Positions 1 through 11,758 are shown, numbered from the stretch's first letter. The stretch is DNA of 11,763 nucleotides from a virus (IMGVR_UViG_3300033120_000148:1-11763); one strand, 5' to 3'. Notes: generated by a model not told the origin, from the letters alone. Numbers and translations: made by a program.

Positions 1-357
1 ATTAAAGAGGATGGAACAACAAGAACAGCATATGTAACAACACATACATCTAAGTATAGTGATAGTTCTTATGATGGTTATGAAAACAGAGGTAGTATAT
101 CTCATTCAGAAGGTTGGACTACTAGAATGTTATTGGGTGCGTTTGGAGACCTTATGCCTACAAATGTTGGTGGAAGTTCAAGCACCTTCTGGTGTGACTA
201 TTATTTGCTAAATACCTCTCCAAACCTTTATGGGGCTTTGCTCTGCGGTGGTGCGCTTGACAGTGTGCGTGTCGGTTTCGGTTGCGTGAATGCGAATAGC
301 GTTCCTGCGTATAATTATGCGTTAGGCTCTCGTCTTTGCTTTGTTAAGCAAGCATAA
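1..357 (+). CDS. 5'-truncated tail/adhesin protein; C-terminus resembles DGR target proteins (C-type-lectin-like) of Bacteroidetes phages
   Basis: Frame 1 is open from base 1 to TAA 355-357 (IKEDGTTRTAY...GWTTRMLLGAFGDLMPTNVGGSSSTFWCDYY...ALLCGGALDSVRVGFGCVNANSVPAYNYALGSRLCFVKQA). The GGSSST(F/Y)WCDYY...GG...GF...GSRLCF pattern is one I recognise from DGR target C-termini. The track ORF 127-357 starts at an internal Met. Confidence 0.7.
   Translation: MKEDGTTRTAYVTTHTSKYSDSSYDGYENRGSISHSEGWTTRMLLGAFGDLMPTNVGGSSSTFWCDYYLLNTSPNLYGALLCGGALDSVRVGFGCVNANSVPAYNYALGSRLCFVKQA
241..345 (+). other. Putative DGR variable region (VR)
   Basis: 53 G+C in bases 241-340 against a strongly AT-rich background. 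11 CpG between 246 and 332. GCG/GTG codons alternate with NNY codons and end in GGC TCT CGT CTT TGC at the extreme 3' end of the CDS. No template repeat or RT in the window. Confidence 0.55.
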
Positions 358-405
358 CATAACAGCATGTAGAATTTTTATATAATACAATTAAAAATAA
401 AGATT

Positions 406-777
406 ATGAAATTAACATACAGTAAAGATAAGCCACAAATATGGTCGGCTGTTGGAAATGGAAGTTACTTCTACCATTTCAACATAAATGAAATTGAAAT
501 ACCTGCACAAACAGAAGGTGCAGAAGCTACAAAGGCATGGCAGTATAACGAAGTCATAGTATGGGGTCCAGTTACCTCTGATGAAGTAACAAAAGAAGTC
601 ATGAATGCAATGTGGTCTAAAGACGCAGAACAGAAAATGCTGAATGACTACAATGCTGCACAACTTGGTATCCTTGGAGAGGAATATATTGCTAATTACA
701 AAGATTTCCTAAATTCTCGCAAGACTATTAAGGCACAGATTGACACTGATTTTCTAACATTTAATTATGGCGGATGA
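406..777 (+). CDS. Hypothetical protein (123 aa), possibly a tail-fibre-associated or assembly protein
   Basis: Clean ORF with an A-rich leader, ending in TGA. It lies between two tail-type genes. It has 6 Gln codons, all CAA/CAG, and no TAG. Function is inferred only from position. Confidence 0.75.
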   Translation: MKLTYSKDKPQIWSAVGNGSYFYHFNINEIEIPAQTEGAEATKAWQYNEVIVWGPVTSDEVTKEVMNAMWSKDAEQKMLNDYNAAQLGILGEEYIANYKDFLNSRKTIKAQIDTDFLTFNYGG

Positions 778-851
778 AGCAATCTATTAATGCACCTTAT
801 ACCTCAGATCATGCTTTACAAGAGGTACAAAAAGATATAAAGTTTATTTAA
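774..851 (+). CDS. Possible 25-aa small ORF or gene remnant (MKQSINAPYTSDHALQEVQKDIKFI)
   Basis: ATG 774 overlaps the TGA of the upstream gene (ATGA). It ends at TAA 849-851 and fills the gap to the next gene. Too short to be sure. Confidence 0.25.
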   Translation: MKQSINAPYTSDHALQEVQKDIKFI

Positions 852-872
852 TAACAAATAAAATAATATATA

Positions 873-3761
873 ATGATTGATTTAAGATAGATAATTTATA
901 GTTAGAGTGAACCTGAATCTAATGAAGTAGGATGGTTGCATAAAATAAATGATGTATTAGTATTAAGTTTCTATGACAATGGAGAATGGAAATGTATTTC
1001 TAGTGATATAACTGAAGAATTAATAAATGCTGAAACTACTAATAGAACATAGGCAGATACAGCACTTGATATTAGAATAGGTGCAGAAGCTAATACTAGA
1101 AATTCTGCTGATATTGCTTTATCTAGTGCACTTAACATTGAGTCCTCTTATAGAGCTAATGCAGATGCTTAGTTAAATTCTGATATAGTAGCAGAAAAAA
1201 CTAGAGCAACTACAGTAGAAAATACCATTGGTACTTCAGTAGGTTTAGATCCTGAGACAAAAATATATACTAACACTGGTTAGTATATTGGTAAATTAGT
1301 AGTTAATACTGTTACATCAGATATTAAAGCATTAGATACTTAGGCTAAGAATCTCTTAGCAATTATAAATAATAAAGTAACTGTAGATCCTAATAAATCT
1401 CTTGTAGATAATACAGAAATTGAAAAATTATAGGCTTTACCTACTTGGGATGATACATTAGCAGTTATAAAAAATAATGCTCCTATAGCACATTATAATT
1501 ATAACATAAAGAAAACTTATGACAGTGTTTCTAGTATGAATGCTGATAAAGCAGCTCCTATAGGAACCGATGAATTACCTATTAAAATTGGAGATATTGT
1601 TACAGTTGTTAATTTAACAACTCCTTCTGAAAATGGTATTTATAGTTATCAAGGTTCTACTTCAGACTTTAAATTTCAATCTAGTTTTAATTTTCAAATT
1701 GAACAATCAAGAAGCCAGAATGCTGATACTTCACCTAGTAGCAAGTTATTTAATTATGAACTTGAGAAAATAAGCAATGGAATAGTTGAATGTTACAGCA
1801 ATTATCAAGGTGATTTGTATCTATATTCTTTACTTAATATATCAGATAACCCAATAAAACTACAAATAGTTAATTCAGATAGGACTATTTTATTTACTCT
1901 TAGTGGCTCTAATGTTTTATCAGGAGTAGAACAGTATGAATTATACGCTGGTAATTATGTATTAAACATTATTATTAATTGGGATATTGTAGTCACTACT
2001 ATTCATAATGACAGTAATTTTAATCTGTATAAACTAGAAACAAAATCACTATTATTATCCCCATCTATACTATTTAATAAATCTAAATTATCGGATAGCA
2101 TTATTTTCAATGATTCCGTATTAGAATGTTATACAAATTATCAAAATAATTTATTTGTAGCAAGAATATTTAACAATAATTCAAGAAGATATATAGCAAT
2201 AGTAAACGAAGATAATTCTTTTAATTTTGTTTATGATGATGTATCACAAACATCAATTAAAACTAGTATAGAATATTTGCAGATAAAATCAGGAATATAC
2301 TCTATATACCTTTATATTGATTGGAGCAAAGTTCCTGAAGCTGATAGTTATTCATTAACACATGAAACTTGGATATTGAGGAAGCTTAATTATAAATGTT
2401 ATGATATAGCTTTTTCACCATACATAAAAGAATTTGTTGAAAACAATCATATATATCGTGATTCACTTATTTTTTTGGCTAAAAATACCTATATTTCAAC
2501 AGACGGAAGTTTTATACAAAACCCTGATTATATTACAAATATTTTTAGTGTAAACCCACTTGAAGAAGTATTGGTAAAAAGTGGACTAAGAGGAGCACCA
2601 TCATCAATGGTATATGTCGCATTTTATAGCGAAACTCCATCTATTAATACTTATTTATCATCAAAAAGTATTAGCACTAATACATCAACTACTGCAATCA
2701 TAAAAGAAAAAATAATTGTTCCTTATAATTGTAAGTATATAGCAGTGTGTGGAATTGCTGAATCAGGATGGGCCTCAACGGAAGAGTACATAAATCCTTA
2801 CTTAGGAGTTGAAATCACAACTTATGACTATTCACAAATAGTTAATAATAATTTTAAAAAATTATTACCTAATAAAAAAATAAATTGCATTGGAGATAGC
2901 TTAACTATGGGTGCAGGAACCATGATTAATGGCTATCACGATATACATCCATATTCTGCAAAATTACAAGAATTATTAGGATATGAATACGATGTTAAAA
3001 ATCAAGGAATAGGAGGTGAGAGAACACTAACAATAGCTGCCAGAACAAATTCTATCAATGCTTTATTAGCTTCTGATATAACATTGCCATATAACAAGGC
3101 TTAGGTTACAATATCAATGATTTCTTCTTTTGATTCTTTGGAGACTGTAACACCATTATTACAAGGAGGTACAACACAAGGAATACCAGAAACAACAGAT
3201 ATAGCACCTAACTATAAGGTATATGTTAAAGGAATACCATGCACTTTAGCTTATTATGGTGAAGCATATCATTTAGTTAGGTTGGTAGCATCAACTGATG
3301 TAAATGATAATATTCCATTATCCGCAGGTACTCCTATTATATTTAATAGAATGTTAAATGACAGAGATACATTGTGCGATATATTGTGGTGCGGAACTAA
3401 TGATTCTGATAAATCAATTTTAATTGATAAAATAAAAAGGATATTATCTTATAGTAATAATTCTAGGCAAATAATAATTGGGCTCCACAATCCATCATCA
3501 ACAAATAGAATATTTACAGATGCAATGAGATTGGAATATAGAAAAGAATTTGGAAATAAATTTTTTGATATTGACTTATACACTCGTACATCTGCACTAT
3601 CTGACATGAATTTAACACCTACAACAGAAGATACAGATGCTATAAATAATGGATTATGTCCACCACAAATTTTGAGTGATGGTTTTCATTTTATCAATGA
3701 GTTCTACGATGCTCTCGCATCTGAATTAATTAATAAAATGAAAGAAAACGGTATTATTTAA
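873..3761 (+). CDS. Tail spike / receptor-binding protein with C-terminal SGNH (GDSL) esterase, 962 aa with TAG=Gln
   Basis: One frame from ATG 873 to TAA 3759-3761, interrupted only by TAG at 888, 903, 1050, 1170, 1281, 1341, 1431 and 3102. This joins track ORFs 1536-3104 and 3117-3761. It has an N-terminal coiled-coil repeat stalk. SGNH blocks: GDSL (Ser 2898), NQGIGG (3000), GTND (3393), DGFH (3678-3689). Confidence 0.8.
1029..1244 (+). repeat. Four tandem 18-aa (54-nt) coiled-coil repeats in the tail spike stalk
   Basis: AETTNRTQADTALDIRIG / AEANTRNSADIALSSALN / IESSYRANADAQLNSDIV / AEKTRATTVENTIGTSVG, starting at 1029, 1083, 1137 and 1191. The fourth copy is degenerate. Confidence 0.7.
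1788..2324 (+). repeat. Diverged internal duplication of a ~112-114-aa domain in the tail spike
   Basis: ECYSNYQGDL (1788) vs ECYTNYQNNL (2124). IVNSDRT vs IVNEDNS. GNYVLNIIINW (W 1980) vs GIYSIYLYIDW (W 2322). Offsets are 336-342 nt. Confidence 0.7.
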
Positions 3762-3975
3762 AATATTGATAAATGGATAAATTAATAAAACATGATAAAA
3801 TAATGATAGATTATAAAAATACAAAAAAAAAAAGTAATGGGAATTAATGGCATTAGATTTATATAATTTCTATATTTTAAATAGTATTAATCTAAACAAA
3901 GTTATCATCTATGTATGAAAGTTTTAACAATTAATACATAGGTATTAATACTAATATAATATTAAATTACATAAT

Positions 3976-4596
3976 ATGAAATTAAAACTAATAACATCTT
4001 TATCAATACTATTACTTATAGTTTGTGGACTATTTATAAAGTAGTGTAGTTCTTATAATAAATTACAAGACTAGTATAAAATATCTATAGCTAATAATAA
4101 AGCTTATCAAAGTTAGTTAGATACTGCTACAAATAAAAGTAATGTATTTCAATTTAAAGTTGGTCAATTGAGCTATCTAAATGATAGTATTATATCTAAG
4201 TTGAAGTCTGTATAGCAGGAACTAAAAATAAAAGATAAGAATCTTTAGGAATTACAGTATATAGCATCAAAAGCTTCTAGAGTAGATACTATTACATTTA
4301 ATAAAAGAGATACATTATTTAAAGATAAGTATTTAAATATTGATACTGTAATAGGTGATAAATGGTATAATTTAAAGGTAGGTTTATATTACCCTTCTAC
4401 TATAGTTGTATCTCCAACTTTTAATAGTGAGAGATATGTTATATCATCATACAAAAAGGACTATGTAAATACTCCTTCAAAGTGGTGGTTTAAGAGAATA
4501 TTTCAAAAGAAATAGAAACTTATAGTAGTAGATATTGTTGAAAAGAATCCTTATATAGTAACATAGTAGAAAAGATTTATATAGATAATTAAATGA
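3976..4596 (+). CDS. Putative spanin-like membrane-anchored lysis protein (206 aa, 9 TAG)
   Basis: ATG 3976 to TGA 4594-4596 is open if TAG is read through. N-terminal hydrophobic helix (LITSLSILLLIVCGLFI) is followed by a coiled-coil-like segment. It is the first gene of a cluster with the holin and endolysin. The spanin call is inferred from architecture and position. Confidence 0.6.
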
Positions 4597-4904
4597 CACC
4601 AAATACAAAAGAATGGATTCAATATGGATCTGCTATAATAATGATAGCTAGTGGAATTATACTAGCTTTCCTCTCTTTCTTTTTTAATCATTTCTCAATA
4701 TCTGACAGTGTTTTATGGTATATAGCATAGGCACTTATGTATGCAGGTGGTATTTTTGGAATAGCTATATATTTTAAAAGTAAATCCACAGAGACTGAAA
4801 ACAGAGGGATACAGTTTACTGAGAAATTAATAAATATTGTTATTGAAGAAATAAACAATAGAGTAAATAATATTAAAACAAATAGTAATGAAAATAAGTG
4901 TTGA
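4593..4904 (+). CDS. Putative holin (103 aa, 2 TM helices, 1 TAG)
   Basis: ATGA overlap with the upstream stop. Two hydrophobic segments (GSAIIMIASGIILAFLSFFF; VLWYIAQALMYAGGIFGIAIYF, with Q = TAG 4728) and a hydrophilic C-terminal tail. It overlaps the endolysin start by 17 nt. Confidence 0.75.
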
Positions 4905-5349
4905 TAGGGCTTATAAATAGTATTCTTATACTATAGGTAAATTATACATAGATGGTAAATTTTTCTGTAATACTTTAGAGGACAAAGATAGAGGTTTAAC
5001 TCAATCTACTCCTCTAGAGGAAATAGCTAAAATAAAAATACCTTCTTAGACAGCAATACCTGCTGGTATATACAGAGTTATACTTAACCAAGTATCACCT
5101 AGATTTTCAAAGAGTGATAAATATAAATCTATTGGTGGAAAACTTCCAAGACTATTAGATGTTCCTGGTTCTGAGGGGGTACTAATACATATAGGTAATA
5201 CAGAGAAAGATACAGCAGGATGTATATTAGTAGGATAGAATAAAGTTAAAGGTTAGGTAGTTAATAGTACTGAGACTTTCTTTAAATTGTACCCTATATT
5301 AAAAGAAGCTTCTAATAGAGGAGAAATAATTACTATTGATATAAAGTAA
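4888..5349 (+). CDS. Putative endolysin, DUF5675-like (His/Cys, L,D-transpeptidase-like motif), 153 aa, 4 TAG
   Basis: [37 protein letters not shown]...TAIPAGIY...[30 protein letters not shown]. Family motifs recognised from memory. His at 5188, Cys at 5221. Adjacent to the holin. Ends TAA 5347-5349. Confidence 0.75.
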
Positions 5350-5397
5350 TAATATTAGTAATATTATACTACATTAATAATAATTTTACAAATAGCA

Positions 5398-5428
5398 TTG
5401 TGCAAGTCAGGAAAGTTACCTAACTTTG
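5398..5428 (+). promoter_or_regulatory. Bacteroidetes sigma-A-type promoter (-33 TTG, -7 TAACTTTG)
   Basis: TTG 5398-5400, a 20-nt spacer, then TAACTTTG 5421-5428, matching the TTTG-N19-21-TAnnTTTG consensus. It is intergenic, 35 nt upstream of the scaffold ATG. Confidence 0.7.
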
Positions 5429-5450
5429 CACATGCTTTTATATAATAATT

Positions 5451-5456
5451 AAGGAG
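5451..5456 (+). promoter_or_regulatory. Shine-Dalgarno-like AAGGAG
   Basis: AAGGAG ends 7 nt before ATG 5464. Confidence 0.55.
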
Positions 5457-5463
5457 AATAATT

Positions 5464-6636
5464 ATGGAAATTGGATTGAATGATACAAGCATTTTGTCAC
5501 CTGAAGAAATAGATAATCTATTTGTAGAACCATCTAGTGAAGGGTAGGCAAATGAAGATGGCTCAGCACCTGAAAATAATGCTGGAGAAAGTGAAAAAAC
5601 AGAAGAAAATAAAACTACTGAGGTTATTAATCCAGACAATTTGTTTGATGAAAAACCAGAGAGCGTAGGTAGTGAAGATAATACAAATCATTAGGAAGAG
5701 GGAGATACTGAACTTAAAAGTGATAGTAATTCTCCAACTTTCTATTCTTCCATAGCTAAAGCTTTTAAGGAAGAAGGTATCTTCCCTGACCTAAATGATG
5801 AAGATTTTAATAAAGTAAAGACTCCAGATGATCTAAGAAATCTTATCAACAAGAGGATTTCTGATAGTCTTGATGAAAGACAAAAGAGAATTGATGAGGC
5901 ATTAAATAGTGGTGTTGAACCTACAGCAGTTAAACAGTATGAAAATACTATTAATTACTTAGAATCAATACAAGAAGATACTATTACTGATGAAGGAGAA
6001 GATGGAGAAAATCTTAGAAAGCAACTTATATTTCAAGACTTTATAAATAGAGGTTTTAGTGAAGAAAGGGCTAATAGAGAAGTAACTAAGTCCTTCAATT
6101 CTGGTAATGATATTGAGGATGCTAAGGAAGCTCTTGCAGGCAATAAAGAGTTCTTTAAATCACAGTATGATGGTATGCTTAATGATGCTAAAGAGAACTC
6201 AAAGCAACTAGAGGAAGCTAGGAAATAGGATGCCAAGGAACTAGAAAAATCAATTTTAGAAGATCAAAAACTATTTGGTGGTATAGATATGACTAAACAA
6301 ACCAGACAAAAGATCTATGATAATATAGCTAAACCTATATATAAAGATCCAGAGACTGGTAATTACTATACTGCTCTTCAAAAGTATCAGAAAGAAAATA
6401 ATAATGACTTCATAAAGAATATGGGCATTGTTTATACTTTAACTGATGGATTTAAGAATATGGATGGTCTAATTAAAGGAAAACTAAATAAAGAAATGAA
6501 GAAGGGTTTTAAAGAATTGGAATAGACTTTAAGTGGTGCTACAATTCATACTGATGGTAGTATTAATTTAATGGGTAGTTCTAGAGATTCTGATCCTGAA
6601 TCATTCTTGGGTAAAGGAATAAACATAGATATTTAA
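5464..6636 (+). CDS. Putative capsid scaffolding protein (conserved crAss-like gene upstream of MCP), 390 aa, 4 TAG
   Basis: ATG 5464 to TAA 6634-6636 with TAG at 5545, 5692, 6226 and 6523. Acidic low-complexity N-terminus and a helical, charged body. Directly upstream of the MCP. The scaffold role is inferred. Confidence 0.7.
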
Positions 6637-6660
6637 TATAATTTTTAATAAGAAAAAAAT

Positions 6661-8172
6661 ATGGCTGGAAAATTAGGTAGATTTTAGACAGTAAGTATGA
6701 CTTCTTGGAAGGGACTTACTAAGGAAAATCATTTAGGCTCTATATTTTAGCAGATGCCACAAAAGGCTACAAACTTTATGGTATAGCTACTTGCATTTTA
6801 TAGAGGTAAAACTCTTGATACATTCTTGAGTCAATTCCCTATAAAGGAGTTTGAAGATGATTCAGAGTATACATGGGATGTAGTTGGATCAAGTAGAAGA
6901 AATATACCTTTGCTAGAAGCAAGGGATGAAAATTACACTGTAGTAACACCAGGTTCTGCAAATGTAGGTGTTGGTACAACTCCATTCTATTTGGTATTCC
7001 CTGAAGATTGGTTTGCTAGGGGTGAATATATTGTTGGTAATTTAAATGAAATTTACCAATTTAGAATCCTAGAAGATGCAAAAATTGAGGGAACTAATGC
7101 AGTATATAAGGTAGAACTTGCTGGTGCAAATACAACAGGTTGTCCTTCAGATAGATTACTTGCAGGTGAGAGATTCTCTGTTGAGGCAGCATTTGTTGAG
7201 AAGGAACTCTCTAGATCAGTAGGTGATGTAAGATTTACATCTTCAACTGCTATGAGAAATGAGTTCTCTACAGTTAGAATCAAGCATAAGGTTACTGGTA
7301 ACATGCTTAATAAGAAACTTGCAGTAGGTTTGCCTATTACTAAGGAAACTCCTAAAGGGTATGTGAGAGATACTATGAATACTTGGATGCACTATGTTGA
7401 GTGGTAGGTAGAGCAGTAGTTCTCTGAATATAAGAATAATGCAATGGCATTTGGTAGAAGCAACAGAAATATCAATGGTGAGTACATGAACATTGGTGAG
7501 TCTGGTGGTGTTATTAAGACTGGTGCTGGTCTATTTGAGCAAATGGAAGTTTCTAATACTATGTACTATAATGTATTTAGTTTGAAGTTACTTGAGGATG
7601 CTATTTATGAATTGTCTGCTTCTAAGTTAGATTTCAATGATAGATATTTTGTTATCAAGACTGGTGAAAGAGGAGCAATCCAATTCCATAAGGAAGTACT
7701 TAAAACAGTATCTGGTTGGACTCAATTCATGCTTGATAATAACTCTATTGGAGTAGTTCAAAAGACCCAATCAAATTTACATACCAACTCATTAAGTGCT
7801 GGTTTCCAATTTGTAGAGTTTAAAGCTCCTAATGGTGTAAGAGTTAAGATTGATGTAGATCCATATTATGATGATCCTGTAAGAAATAAGATTCTGCATC
7901 CAAATGGTGGTGTTGCAATGTCTTATAGATATGACATTATGTATATAGGTTCTGCTGAGCAAGCTAATATATTTAAGTGTGCTATTAAGGGTCAACCAGA
8001 GCTTAGAGGCTATCAATGGGGACTTAGAAATCCATTTACTGGACAGTTAAACAATAACAATATGTCTTATGATGAGGACTCTGCTTCAATTCATAGAATG
8101 GCTACATTTGGTGTTTGTGTCTTAGACCCAACAAGAACTATGTCATTGATTCCTGCTAGCTTGCAGGGTTAA
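6661..8172 (+). CDS. Major capsid protein, crAss-like (503 aa, 5 TAG)
   Basis: MAGKLGRFQ...WKGLTKENHLGSIFQQMPQKATNFMVQLLAFYRGKTLDTFL...GSSRRNIPL...LDPTRTMSLIPASLQG. From memory this closely follows the crAss001-type MCP. TAG at 6685, 6748, 6784, 7405 and 7417 joins track ORFs 6826-7407 and 7444-8172. Confidence 0.93.
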
Positions 8173-8179
8173 TATAATT

Positions 8180-8230
8180 AATTAGGGGGAAGGAAATTAG
8201 TTCCTTCTCTCTAATTTAAATAATTTTTTA
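8180..8230 (+). terminator. Long stem-loop after MCP; probable intrinsic terminator or transcript-stabilising hairpin
   Basis: AATTAGGGGGAAGGAA (8180-8195), loop ATTAG, TTCCTTCTCTCTAATT (8201-8216). This is a 16-bp stem with two G-U pairs, followed by an A/T-rich tract with T6 at 8224-8229. Confidence 0.7.
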
Positions 8231-8248
8231 AAGTTTTAAAATCATATT

Positions 8249-8254
8249 AAGGAG
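8249..8254 (+). promoter_or_regulatory. Shine-Dalgarno-like AAGGAG
   Basis: AAGGAG ends 6 nt before ATG 8261. It sits in the same TTAAGGAGAA decamer as at 5449. Confidence 0.55.
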
Positions 8255-8260
8255 AAGAAT

Positions 8261-9295
8261 ATGGCTAAAAATAATATGGAAGAGTTAATAATTGATGATG
8301 AGTCTATAGATTCTACACCAATGATTGAAGTACCAAAATAGAAAACAAAGGTTACTACAGCAACTAAGAAAGTAGATACTATTAGTAAAGGTAATTCTAC
8401 AGGTTTAATTAACTGTCTTAGAAATGAAAGAGTAATTGTAAGACATATAAATAGACCAGTAGGTCTAGTACAAAATCCAAAACATATATTATATGGTGGA
8501 ATGGCAGAGAATGCTGTTAAAGTGTTTGTAACACCTATGCTTTCATCAGGTAATTTTGTTAATGTATTGACAGACTCTGAGAAAGAGTATCTAGAATATA
8601 TAATGGGTTTAGAGTATAATGCTTTAAGTGTATATAAGAGACCTCTTCAAGATAATTACTGGAGTGACTGCAATGAATCTGGAGTCTCAAAAGTAAGATT
8701 AACTAAGCAAGATAATATTTTGGATTTATCAAGTCCAGAAGACTATATAAGATATAAGATACTATTAGCTAATAAAGATTTAATTTGTCCTTCACTAAAG
8801 GACTTAGAGGACCATCCAAAGGCTTCTTACCAATTTGTTATTGTAATAGAAAATGAGGAAGTTAAGATGGAAAGAGCTGATATGACTTATACAATGCAGT
8901 GTTACTTTGAATTAGGAAAAATTCAAGATGATATTGATACACTAAGAACTCTCACAGAGTTACTAACAGGTAGACCTACATCACCTTCTAGTAAGATAGA
9001 GTTTTTACAAAATAACCTTAATAATATTATTAAGAGTAATGCAAAGACATTCCTTAGAGCAGCTACAGATGAATTGCTTCCTTATAAGGTTATTCTTAAT
9101 AGAGGTATTGCAGCTAAGTGTATCATTAAGAATGGTAATTACTATATTCTAAGAGATGGTCAAAATAAGACAAATCTTTGTGAAGATGGTCAAGAACCTA
9201 CATTAAATAATGCTGCTAAATTCATATCAATGCCACAGCATCAAGACTTTAAATTCTTGATTGAGGCAAAGATAAATGAAATAAATAATAAATAA
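8261..9295 (+). CDS. Conserved crAss-like protein downstream of MCP, function unknown (344 aa, 1 TAG)
   Basis: ATG 8261 with an SD. A single TAG at 8339 extends track ORF 8501-9295. The position matches the conserved gene following the MCP in crAss-like phages. Confidence 0.8.
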
Positions 9296-9299
9296 TATT

Positions 9300-10049
9300 A
9301 TGACAATCTAGGAATTTTCTAATGAATTTGATATACTCTATAATAATATTATGAGTAATGCTGCTCCAGGAGTAGATGAGTATGAAAAATCAGTATTCTT
9401 AACTAAAGCCTAGCTTGAAATAATAAGAAACTATTTTAATCCTGAAAGTAATAAAAATAAGTAGGGATTTGATGATAGTCCAAAGAGGTAGATAGACTTT
9501 TCTTCTATTATTAAAACTACTACTCCTTCAACATATACAGGAATATATACTAAGTTTGATGATAAGAGTAAAGTTTACTCTTTACCTTCTGATTTATTAT
9601 ATATAATTAATGAATCTGCAACTGTAACACTTAATAATGTATCTAAAAATATATCTATAATACCACTTACTTTTAGTTAGTATTTGCAATAGATTAATAA
9701 GCCTTATAAATATCCTCTGAAGAATTAGGGTTGGAGATTAATTCTAAATGCTTAGAATGGTCCAATTCTAGGCTAGAGAGGTACAATAGCTAATGTTGCA
9801 GAAGTAATAATCAATCCTAATTATATATTATCTTAGTATAAAATAAGATATATTTTTAAACCTAACCCTATTATATTAATAGATTTAACGAGTAGTGGAT
9901 TATCTATAGCAGGTATGACTACGTCATCTTAGTGTCAATTAGATTCTTCTATTCACTAGGAAATATTATAGAGAGCAGTAGAACTAGCTAAATCTGCTTA
10001 TATGGGAGATTTAAATACTAATGTAGAATTAGGACAAAGAATTGAATAA
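9300..10049 (+). CDS. Tail ring/tubular protein paralogue 1 (249 aa, 13 TAG)
   Basis: Absent from the ORF track but open from ATG 9300 to TAA 10047-10049 with TAG read through. MTIQEFSNEFDILYNN...DEYEKSVFLTKAQ...KPNPIILIDL...IHQEILQRAVELA. Clearly paralogous to the next gene. The ring role is inferred from crAss-like synteny. Confidence 0.75.
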
Positions 10050-10747
10050 TGACTACAGAAGAATTTTCAAATGAATTTGAAGTATTACTTAATAGTTATG
10101 CTTTAAAATAGCCTAATACAGTATTAGATCTACAATTTGATGAGTATGAAAAGTCAATTTTTCTCACTAAGGCTTAGGAGGATCTAGTAATATCTATTTA
10201 TGATGGTAAAAATCCTTATAATGACTCCTTTGAGAAGACTGAAGAAGTAAGAAGAGGCTTAAGTGCATTAATTGAAACATATACTATATCATAGGAAAAG
10301 TCTATATCTACTAGTGGTTTAACACCTACTTCTAAGTTTTATGCTATACCTAATGATTTATGGTTTATAACTTATGAATCTGCTACTATTTCAGATAATT
10401 CTCTAGGTCCTAATCCTATAGAGGCTATGATATATCCTATCACATAGGATGATTTTTATAGAGTTAATAGGAATCCTTTTAGGAATAGTAATGAGAAAAG
10501 AGTACTCAGATTAGATGTAGATTCTACTACTATTGAGTTAATTTCAAAATATAGTATCTCTAGGTATCTAGTCAGGTATTTAAGAAAACCTTCTCCTATT
10601 ATAATTGAACCTTTAACAGATGGGTTAACTATAAATGGAGTAAGTGTAAAAACAGAATGTGAATTAAATCCTGTTATTCATAGAGCAATCTTAGATAAAG
10701 CAGTAAAGTATGCTTATAATAGTAGACTATAGAATACAGGTAAATAA
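10049..10747 (+). CDS. Tail ring/tubular protein paralogue 2 (232 aa, 5 TAG)
   Basis: TAATG overlap with the upstream stop. MTTEEFSNEFEVLLNS...DEYEKSIFLTKAQ...KPSPIIIEPL...IHRAILDKAVKYA. Ends TAA 10745-10747. Confidence 0.75.
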
Positions 10748-10777
10748 AAAATATTATATAACTAAATTTTTATAAAA

Positions 10778-11758
10778 ATGGCAGCATTTAGTACAAATCA
10801 AGTAAGACATTTATATGTAGCTAATGGTACAGGCGCAGTTACAGCAGCATCTGCTGCAGGCACTATTGCAGTAAAGTCTAATACTGTAGATTCTTCAATC
10901 TATTTTTAGTATAAGGGAGCAACAGATCTAATGAGATCTGATATTATTAATATTAAGAATATTAATAGTGCAAAGCTTACACTAGCATCAGCTTTAGCTA
11001 CTAAACTTAAATAGGTTACAGTAACTTTAAAGAGTGATGTAAATACAGGTAATCCAATTACTGGTCAAGATTATATTCTTAGAATTAATTTTAGACAGTA
11101 TCTAGCAACAGGTGATGATAATCAACATATTAAATTTGGTGCAGTTCATGCTTATCAAGGTATGACTCCTTCAGATTTCTATAAGACTTTAGCTCTGTCT
11201 CTTGCAGGTAACTTTAAGAAGGAAGTAGTTCCTCTTTTAACTTTTCAACTAGCTACTTCTACTACTCCAGTTGATGTAACATCATTTACAAAAGCTGCAG
11301 ATTTGACAGGTACTTATACAGGTGTAATTATAACAGAAGCTGTTCAACCTTGGACAAGAGGTCTTTTCCAATAGGTATCAGTTGCTTTTGGGGTTAACCC
11401 TACTACTGTTTTATTTGGCGGTGATGAAGTAATTTGGGGTACTACTGCTATAGCTACAGGAGCTTCTGTTCCTGATGGAAAGAAGATTGCTGACTTAGAG
11501 TACTTCTGCATGGGTGAAAGAGGTGATATTTATAGAAATATGGGATTCCCTAATGTTATTCCTACTACTTATCTAGTAGATCCAACTAAGGAATATCATG
11601 TTCTAGATATTAGTTATTACTTTGCAGGACCTGGAGAGGATGTACAAAAGTCTCAAAGATCACTATCAATAGTTTGTGCTGATAAGGCAACTATGAATGC
11701 TCTTATTACAGCCTTTAATACAGCCACAGGCTTGGCAGTAGCTGTAATACCTGACTAA
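10778..11758 (+). CDS. Virion structural protein, probable auxiliary capsid protein (326 aa, 3 TAG)
   Basis: MAAFSTNQVRHLYVAN...GERGDIYRNMGFPNVIPTTYLVDP. TAG at 10907, 11012 and 11372 joins track ORFs 11162-11374 and 11510-11758. The Ala/Thr/Val-rich composition and position after the two ring genes fit crAss-like synteny. Confidence 0.7.

Follow-up and report, generated by a model that had tools for sequence, protein, structure and literature searches.

Results

The window analysed here is a stretch of 11,763 nucleotides of viral DNA (IMGVR_UViG_3300033120_000148:1-11763) that forms the first 11.8 kb of a linear IMG/VR record of 75,763 bp (CheckV completeness 75%), and it covers the upstream portion of the late module, the virion and lysis genes, of a crAss-like phage resembling the Steigviridae. 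Once the amber codon TAG is read as sense, ten tiled open reading frames (ORFs) occupy the plus strand from 873 to 11758, whereas the standard code (table 11) yields scattered ORFs only. Sequence comparison gives good support to the reading of TAG as a sense codon in these ten late genes. Membership of the Crassvirales (Steigviridae-like, Beta group) is evident from matches to Crass_capsid (708 bits), to CrAss_Ring_3_4 (twice) and to crAss_AuxCP (426 bits). Further downstream on the contig lie Ring 2, Ring 1, muzzle and cargo 1 genes, the signature virion genes standing in conserved order, and among named records the closest are Kahnovirus oralis cr85_1, IAS virus and Kolpuevirus.

Gene identities were obtained with Pfam and PHROGs, run on the read-through products. 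The first of the ten genes, all of which are on the plus strand, encodes a tail spike or fibre protein (873..3761; 962 codons) that matches phrog_28673 at residues 667-961 (E 1.7e-26). Its C-terminal part is tail-protein and SGNH/GDSL-like, the Lipase_GDSL_2 match being weak and under the curated cut-off. Three genes that correspond in part, by sequence similarity, to the annotated lysis cassette of cr85_1 come next. The first of these (3976..4596; 206 codons, nine TAG against seven CAA/CAG) shares 40% identity with the cr85_1 'lysis regulatory protein' and has an N-terminal hydrophobic anchor with a hydropathy peak at residues 3-21; it is probably spanin-like or a lysis regulator. The second (4593..4904; 103 codons, phrog_8278, E 3e-15) encodes a small membrane protein in which approximately residues 13-31 form a strong hydrophobic stretch and, by eye, approximately 40-60 form another, and its topology and position between two other lysis genes, as in cr85_1, suggest a holin-like function. 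The third (4888..5349; 153 codons, four TAG against two CAA) is a DUF5675 gene (PF18925, 104 bits) with 54% identity to the cr85_1 L,D-carboxypeptidase. DUF5675 relatives carry the annotation L,D-carboxypeptidase/transpeptidase, and the product is probably the endolysin.

The remaining six genes belong to the virion module. A conserved gene of unknown function (5464..6636; 390 codons), with 56% identity to the cr85_1 gene upstream of the major capsid protein (MCP) gene and homologues in 80/80 related loci, precedes the MCP gene itself (6661..8172; 503 codons), whose product scores 708 bits against PF23898 Crass_capsid and 880 bits against the solved crAss001 gp32 (7QOF), with which it aligns end to end. 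Downstream of the MCP gene lies a conserved gene (8261..9295; 344 codons) with 55% identity to a cr85_1 gene annotated as a dsDNA-binding-domain protein, followed by two tail ring protein genes. The first of these (9300..10049; 249 codons) had been labelled ring protein 1 in the original prediction, a model's reading of the window made from the sequence alone, which credited it with 13 TAG and 3 CAA. The counts hold (with 0 CAG), but the label does not: the gene is a homologue of crAss001 gp34, ring 4/5 (PF25710, 212 bits; 7QOJ chain E, 245 bits), and the homologue of ring protein 1 lies outside the window at contig 13145-13852. The second (10049..10747; 232 codons, five TAG against one CAA) belongs to the ring 3/4 family (PF25710, 294 bits) and is the likely counterpart of gp35 (ring 3). 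The series ends with the gene for an auxiliary capsid protein (AuxCP; 10778..11758; 326 codons, PF25650 crAss_AuxCP, 426 bits).

The original prediction held that these ten consecutive genes are broken by TAG only, some 53 times, that all ten terminate in TAA or TGA, and that reading through TAG restores tight tiling with ATGA and TAATG overlaps. Our count bears this out in full. From 5' to 3' the genes contain 8, 9, 1, 4, 4, 5, 1, 13, 5 and 3 in-frame TAG codons, exactly 53 in total, with no in-frame TAA, no in-frame TGA and no frameshifts, while the other two frames of the same ten genes hold 426 TAA, 241 TGA and 234 TAG. ATG is the start codon of each of the ten, the stop is TAA in eight and TGA in two, and the two overlaps were located at 4593-4596 (ATGA) and 10047-10051 (TAATG). 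Coverage, taken as the share of the window lying in stop-free stretches of at least 100 codons, rises from 0.602 under table 11 to 0.965 with TAG as sense, the comparison of tables 11 and 15 that had been suggested as a check. Shuffled sequence, used as a control, reached a mean of 0.085 and a maximum of 0.222 when read with TAG as sense (200 shuffles). Reassignment of TGA or TAA instead was rejected, the coverage rising to only 0.646 and 0.779, respectively. Interruption by TAG alone is confirmed as real and far beyond chance. In practical terms, and as had been foreseen, gene calling with table 11 breaks or misses most genes of the window, as well as most genes of the first 29.5 kb of the contig, and capsid, tail and lysis genes are lost from annotation unless code 15 is applied.

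Across the whole contig, recoding is confined to one gene block. The 19 plus strand genes between 367 and 29480 contain 198 in-frame TAG compared with 207 CAA and CAG (155 CAA, 52 CAG), TAG making up about half of all inferred glutamine (Gln) codons in this late block, whereas the minus strand genes between 29641 and 75752 are essentially TAG-free. Measured in 5-kb bins, coverage over the first 30 kb is 0.06-0.52 under table 11 and 0.86-1.00 with TAG as sense, and beyond 30 kb it is almost unchanged. Recoding is limited to late genes, and those for early functions and replication keep to the standard code. The proposal that recoding spans the structural and lysis region stands within the window; the recoded block is not confined to the window, and extends to 29.5 kb.

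Five of the 52 minus strand genes called with table 11 terminate at TAG (contig 44152-44862, 60081-60779, 67362-67868, 72293-72571 and 73702-73935, all outside the window); the codon thus seems to serve as a stop in some early genes and as a Gln codon in the late ones. All five have an in-frame TAA or TGA 0-9 codons after the TAG, and one ends in TAG-TAG. The chance of finding all five back-up stops so near is about 0.03 by a rough geometric estimate, and such stops would limit readthrough once TAG is suppressed.

Within the late block the TAG share of Gln codons is uneven among genes (chi-square p = 2e-5), and is high in the spanin-like gene (9/16), the DUF5675 gene (4/6) and the two ring genes (13/16 and 5/6). 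The first TAG falls at codon 4-46 in all ten window genes. Over the late block, the first fifth of the genes holds 56 of the 198 TAG and 39 of the 207 CAA/CAG, a 5' bias that is marginal (Kolmogorov-Smirnov p = 0.053). The tail gene at 873..3761 is sharply divided, with TAG at positions 888, 903, 1050, 1170, 1281, 1341, 1431 and 3102. Its first 220 codons contain seven TAG and no CAA or CAG, as originally described, and the remaining 742 contain one TAG and 19 CAA/CAG (Fisher p = 9e-6). No homologue of this gene was found in the 80 related loci; contigs from three runs of other studies cover 873-3900 thinly, an observation that carries no weight of its own. The distribution would fit a native recoded N-terminal anchor to which a receptor-binding part, taken from a source with the standard code, has recently been joined.

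The code state of the three giant injected RNA polymerase (RNAP)/cargo genes (contig 22977-40916) varies among relatives. On this contig the late-strand, gp47-like gene holds 61 TAG in 2167 codons and the two opposite-strand genes hold none, and in two recoded loci, L166 and L167, the gp47-like late-strand giant gene alone is likewise recoded. A further locus, L194, has two of the three giant genes recoded. In G001, a recoded relative whose genome is complete, the late strand carries all of them, and their TAG counts are 39, 51 and 47. A rule by which the TAG state strictly follows the strand was rejected, as the 1350-residue homologue in L194 carries 36 TAG and its neighbour on the same strand carries none. 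After the giant genes, beside a thymidylate-synthase-like gene, there is a gap of about 1.2 kb (contig 41854-43060) with no convincing ORF. The only open frame in this gap (42351-42824, plus strand) needs five TAG to be read through, including two TAG-TAG pairs, and gave no family match.

The TAGs could in principle be damage or artefact, whether from a decaying phage, from sequencing or assembly errors, or from a chimera of recoded and standard-code sequence; the contig is an incomplete metagenome assembly, and its code state changes abruptly at 29.5 kb. Contigs from one public run (X1), possibly the source sample, match the window with 0 differences, however, and three other studies (aquatic, wastewater and bioreactor) contain variants that differ from it in about 1-3% of letters between about 4.0 and 11.7 kb. 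Public contigs compared with the window showed 434 differences in all. Assembly error, which had been named beforehand as a way for the prediction to fail, is excluded, because only TAG interrupts the frames, and in one strand block only. A chimera joined at the 29.5-kb code boundary was also rejected: the convergent layout of the giant RNAP-type genes is shared by the standard-code cr85_1 and by L166 and L167, and the TAG pattern of the latter two is the same as on this contig. No break in coverage at 29.5 kb and no raw reads with CAG or CAA at the TAG sites were seen. Given also that TAG columns are Gln columns in homologues, we attach a negligible probability to damage or artefact of any kind.

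To identify the residue for which TAG stands, we assembled 80 IMG/VR loci, each surrounding a homologue of the MCP with 75-82% identity and 70 of them standard-code by coding density, and aligned the late proteins with X at each TAG. This gave 85 usable TAG columns, 44 of them in the window. A likelihood model, in which the probability of a homologue residue given the query residue was learned from 4114 non-TAG columns, returned log-likelihoods of -208.9 for Gln, -284.1 for lysine (Lys) and -292.3 for glutamate (Glu), a margin of 75 units in favor of Gln. Gln came first in 2000/2000 column bootstraps over the 85 columns and in 1998/2000 for the 44 window columns alone, and as a control the same procedure recovered the true residue for 20/20 amino acids. 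The majority homologue residue is Gln at 33 of the 85 columns, Glu at 16 and Lys at 4, with the others scattered, and Gln occupies 24 of the 35 TAG columns that are at least 80% conserved. Moreover, homologues show no different spread of residues at TAG columns than at columns where the phage itself has CAA or CAG (chi-square p = 0.22). In the MCP, TAG codons 9, 30, 42 and 253 face Gln in 74-77 of the 80 loci and in crAss001 gp32 (PDB 7QOF), in agreement with the original prediction, which placed four of the five MCP TAGs at crAss001 Gln sites. All the tests made support TAG as a sense codon, with Gln as its best assignment.

No tRNA gene was found on the window or on the whole 75.8-kb contig, 75% complete, with ARAGORN and Rfam RF00005. 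The scan for a CUA-anticodon tRNA suggested by the original prediction was thus negative for this contig but positive for G001, a complete TAG-recoded relative of 97,972 bp with an MCP 77% identical. G001 has two tRNA genes only, a tRNA(CUA) adjoining a tRNA-Met, in a segment with no counterpart on the contig that by tblastx synteny would lie about 15 kb upstream of the contig start. The first bases of the 5' acceptor strand of this tRNA(CUA) match a phage tRNA-Gln(UUG) at 7/8 positions, a comparison by eye that carries little weight. Five complete standard-code relatives (G005-G009) have 13-30 tRNA genes each, in the same general region as the G001 pair, and no TAG-reading tRNA was present among the fetched tRNAs of complete standard-code relatives. 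The absence of a suppressor tRNA from the contig is probably a matter of its incompleteness, and a tRNA(CUA) encoded by this phage outside the window, as the original prediction proposed, is plausible. Its companion proposal of antagonism of release factor 1 (RF1) encoded outside the window gained no support, as the class I release-factor domain PF00472 was found neither on the 75%-complete contig nor in the complete G001.

Upstream of the ten genes, the contig start truncates a tail protein gene, whose 3' end (1..357, plus strand; phrog_5302, profile positions 432-545/548, E 2e-23) has no TAG in the 118 codons present. It is followed by a small late gene of unknown function (367..777, plus strand; phrog_11557) in which, with the ATG at 367 taken as the start, codon 2 is the single TAG; under table 11 the gene starts at the ATG at 406. 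Over window positions 1-786 the summed contig depth is about 400-1200, compared with about 20-60 over most of the remaining window (three metagenome runs from other studies), and the contigs matching positions 1-786 are many and 90-95% alike. This looks like a segment common to many abundant related phages. Two attempts to extend the record gave nothing: a scan for related loci using the first ORF, aimed at the missing part of the genome, found no relatives, and an exact-protein look-up of a gene near the contig end found no match on record.

Discussion

Taken as a whole, our results make it very probable that the late module of this phage decodes TAG as Gln, with a suppressor tRNA from the missing region as the likely switch. 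In this model, an unmodified host could translate the opposite-strand early and middle genes, which are in the standard code. Before TAG is suppressed, the ten window genes would yield short N-terminal peptides only, because the first TAG lies within 46 codons in every one of them. The likely switch would be an amber-suppressor tRNA of the phage itself, one that has the anticodon CUA, carries Gln and is probably encoded in the approximately 25 kb absent from the contig. Accumulation of this tRNA would then allow capsid, tail and lysis proteins to be made, and recoding would in this way delay and couple the translation of late genes. What the sequences show is that TAG is a sense codon in these genes, is best read as Gln and is recoded in a single gene block. 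That this phage has a suppressor tRNA, that the tRNA is charged with Gln and that it acts on timing are inferred, the first of these from the tRNA(CUA) that G001 has in a region absent here.

Several of our observations weigh against this explanation, some concerning the residue and others the decoding machinery. MCP codon 249 (window 7405-7407), the fifth TAG of that gene, faces Glu in 80/80 loci and in crAss001 gp32, and about one fifth of all TAG columns have Glu as the majority homologue residue. The late proteins contain 4.4% Gln when TAG is counted, compared with 3.3% in standard-code homologues. With regard to decoding, neither a tRNA gene nor a release-factor domain is present on the contig; G001, from which the tRNA(CUA) is known, is a distant relative with non-capsid proteins only 25-49% identical; and no isotype stands out for its tRNA(CUA), for which the best scores in global alignments with 90 tRNAs of phages are 19 for Lys, 18 for Gln and 17 for Arg.

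The points that concern the residue could be taken to mean that TAG is a sense codon for another amino acid, with Glu or Lys as the best alternatives, a reading that would also be served by the ambiguous isotype of the G001 tRNA. We consider this very improbable. The likelihoods and bootstraps described above favor Gln decisively over both, and the phage's own CAA/CAG columns show a like spread of Gln, Glu and Lys. Some Glu and Lys is in any case to be expected at TAG columns: a single base change turns GAG or AAG into TAG, giving Glu-to-Gln and Lys-to-Gln replacements, and Gln, Glu and Lys exchange readily. Gln was, in addition, the residue found by metaproteomics in crAss-like phages (PMC9523058). 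With Gln retained as the assignment, the Glu at MCP codon 249 and the Gln excess suggest that many TAGs are non-synonymous gains and not CAG-to-TAG changes.

The points that concern decoding could instead indicate readthrough with no dedicated phage tRNA, either by a suppressor from the host or a co-infecting element, or by inhibition of host RF1 together with a near-cognate tRNA-Gln on UAG. The lack of any tRNA on a 75%-complete contig is compatible with this, as is the report that the association of recoding with suppressor tRNAs is frequent but imperfect (Yutin et al. 2021, Nat Commun 12:1044, PMC7886860). However, decoding must be very efficient, because the late block contains 198 TAG, 61 of them in one gene of 2167 codons. 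Moreover, G001 carries its tRNA(CUA) in the very region missing here, complete relatives all have tRNA genes in that region, and no release-factor-like gene was found on the contig or in G001. Readthrough of this kind therefore seems very unlikely to us, and a phage-encoded, Gln-charged suppressor remains the preferred explanation.

Whether TAG is under positive selection as a translational gate, beyond being a neutral synonym of CAG, is a separate matter on which we are doubtful, while regarding it as a possibility worth stating. The idea draws on the higher Gln content of the late proteins, the extra Gln falling where relatives have Glu, Lys or another residue, with MCP codon 249 among these sites; on the position of the first TAG, at or before codon 46 in each of the window genes; and on the variable code state of the giant genes, the number recoded being one of three on this contig, in L166 and in L167, two in L194 and three in G001. 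Comparing lineages by the code state of their giant genes would offer a natural experiment on recoding as a means of setting expression timing.

Late-gene TAG-to-Gln recoding in Beta-group (Steigviridae) crAss-like phages has been published (PMC7886860; 10.1101/2021.08.26.457843; PMC9523058), just as the original prediction acknowledged for Crassvirales. Yutin et al. (PMC7886860) described recoding of mostly late genes, with code switches at short phylogenetic distances and with suppressor tRNAs in many of the genomes but not in all. Like their phages, the one studied here has in-frame TAG in the MCP and other signature genes, has Gln as the assigned residue and is recoded in its late genes. 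Unlike their human-gut set, it comes from wastewater, bioreactor and aquatic runs, and a suppressor tRNA is not on the contig. Our MCP tree places it, modestly supported, among other recoded contigs, and at least three code-state changes are needed over the 81 rows.

In crAss-like phages of about 105 kb, Borges et al. (10.1101/2021.08.26.457843) found structural and lysis genes forming one alternatively coded unit, with replication genes in the standard code, and TAG preferred over CAA/CAG in spanin, lysis-enzyme and tail genes, and they proposed a control of lysis timing. Our phage resembles theirs in its TAG-rich spanin-like (9/16), DUF5675 (4/6) and ring genes (13/16 and 5/6), and differs in its lysis enzyme, which is of the DUF5675 L,D-carboxypeptidase type where theirs is a lysozyme-type amidase. 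The preprint later appeared in Nat Microbiol in 2022.

Peters et al. 2022 (Nat Commun 13:5710, PMC9523058) report that metaproteomics confirmed TAG as Gln in two crAss-like phages. The codon, the residue and the phage order are shared with our case, the evidence there being peptides and here comparative sequence. Release-factor modules associated with code change, as in the TAG-recoded Lak and Agate phages (release factor 2) and in Jade (tRNA, aminoacyl-tRNA synthetase and RF1), have no PF00472 counterpart on this incomplete contig.

A further comparison is with the standard-code Steigviridae. The lysis cassette, MCP, ring proteins, AuxCP, muzzle, cargo and giant RNAP-type genes are all shared with cr85_1 (MT774390) and crAss001, in an order that is largely kept, and the MCP is 79% identical to that of Kahnovirus oralis cr85_1, yet both of these phages use the standard code throughout, unlike the phage described here. 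The latter opens no new question, since earlier papers on this group of phages already report the phenomenon, its restriction to late genes and Gln as the residue. It is a further example, of the wastewater and bioreactor type, of a crAss-like phage in which TAG stands for Gln in late genes while appearing to end some early ones.

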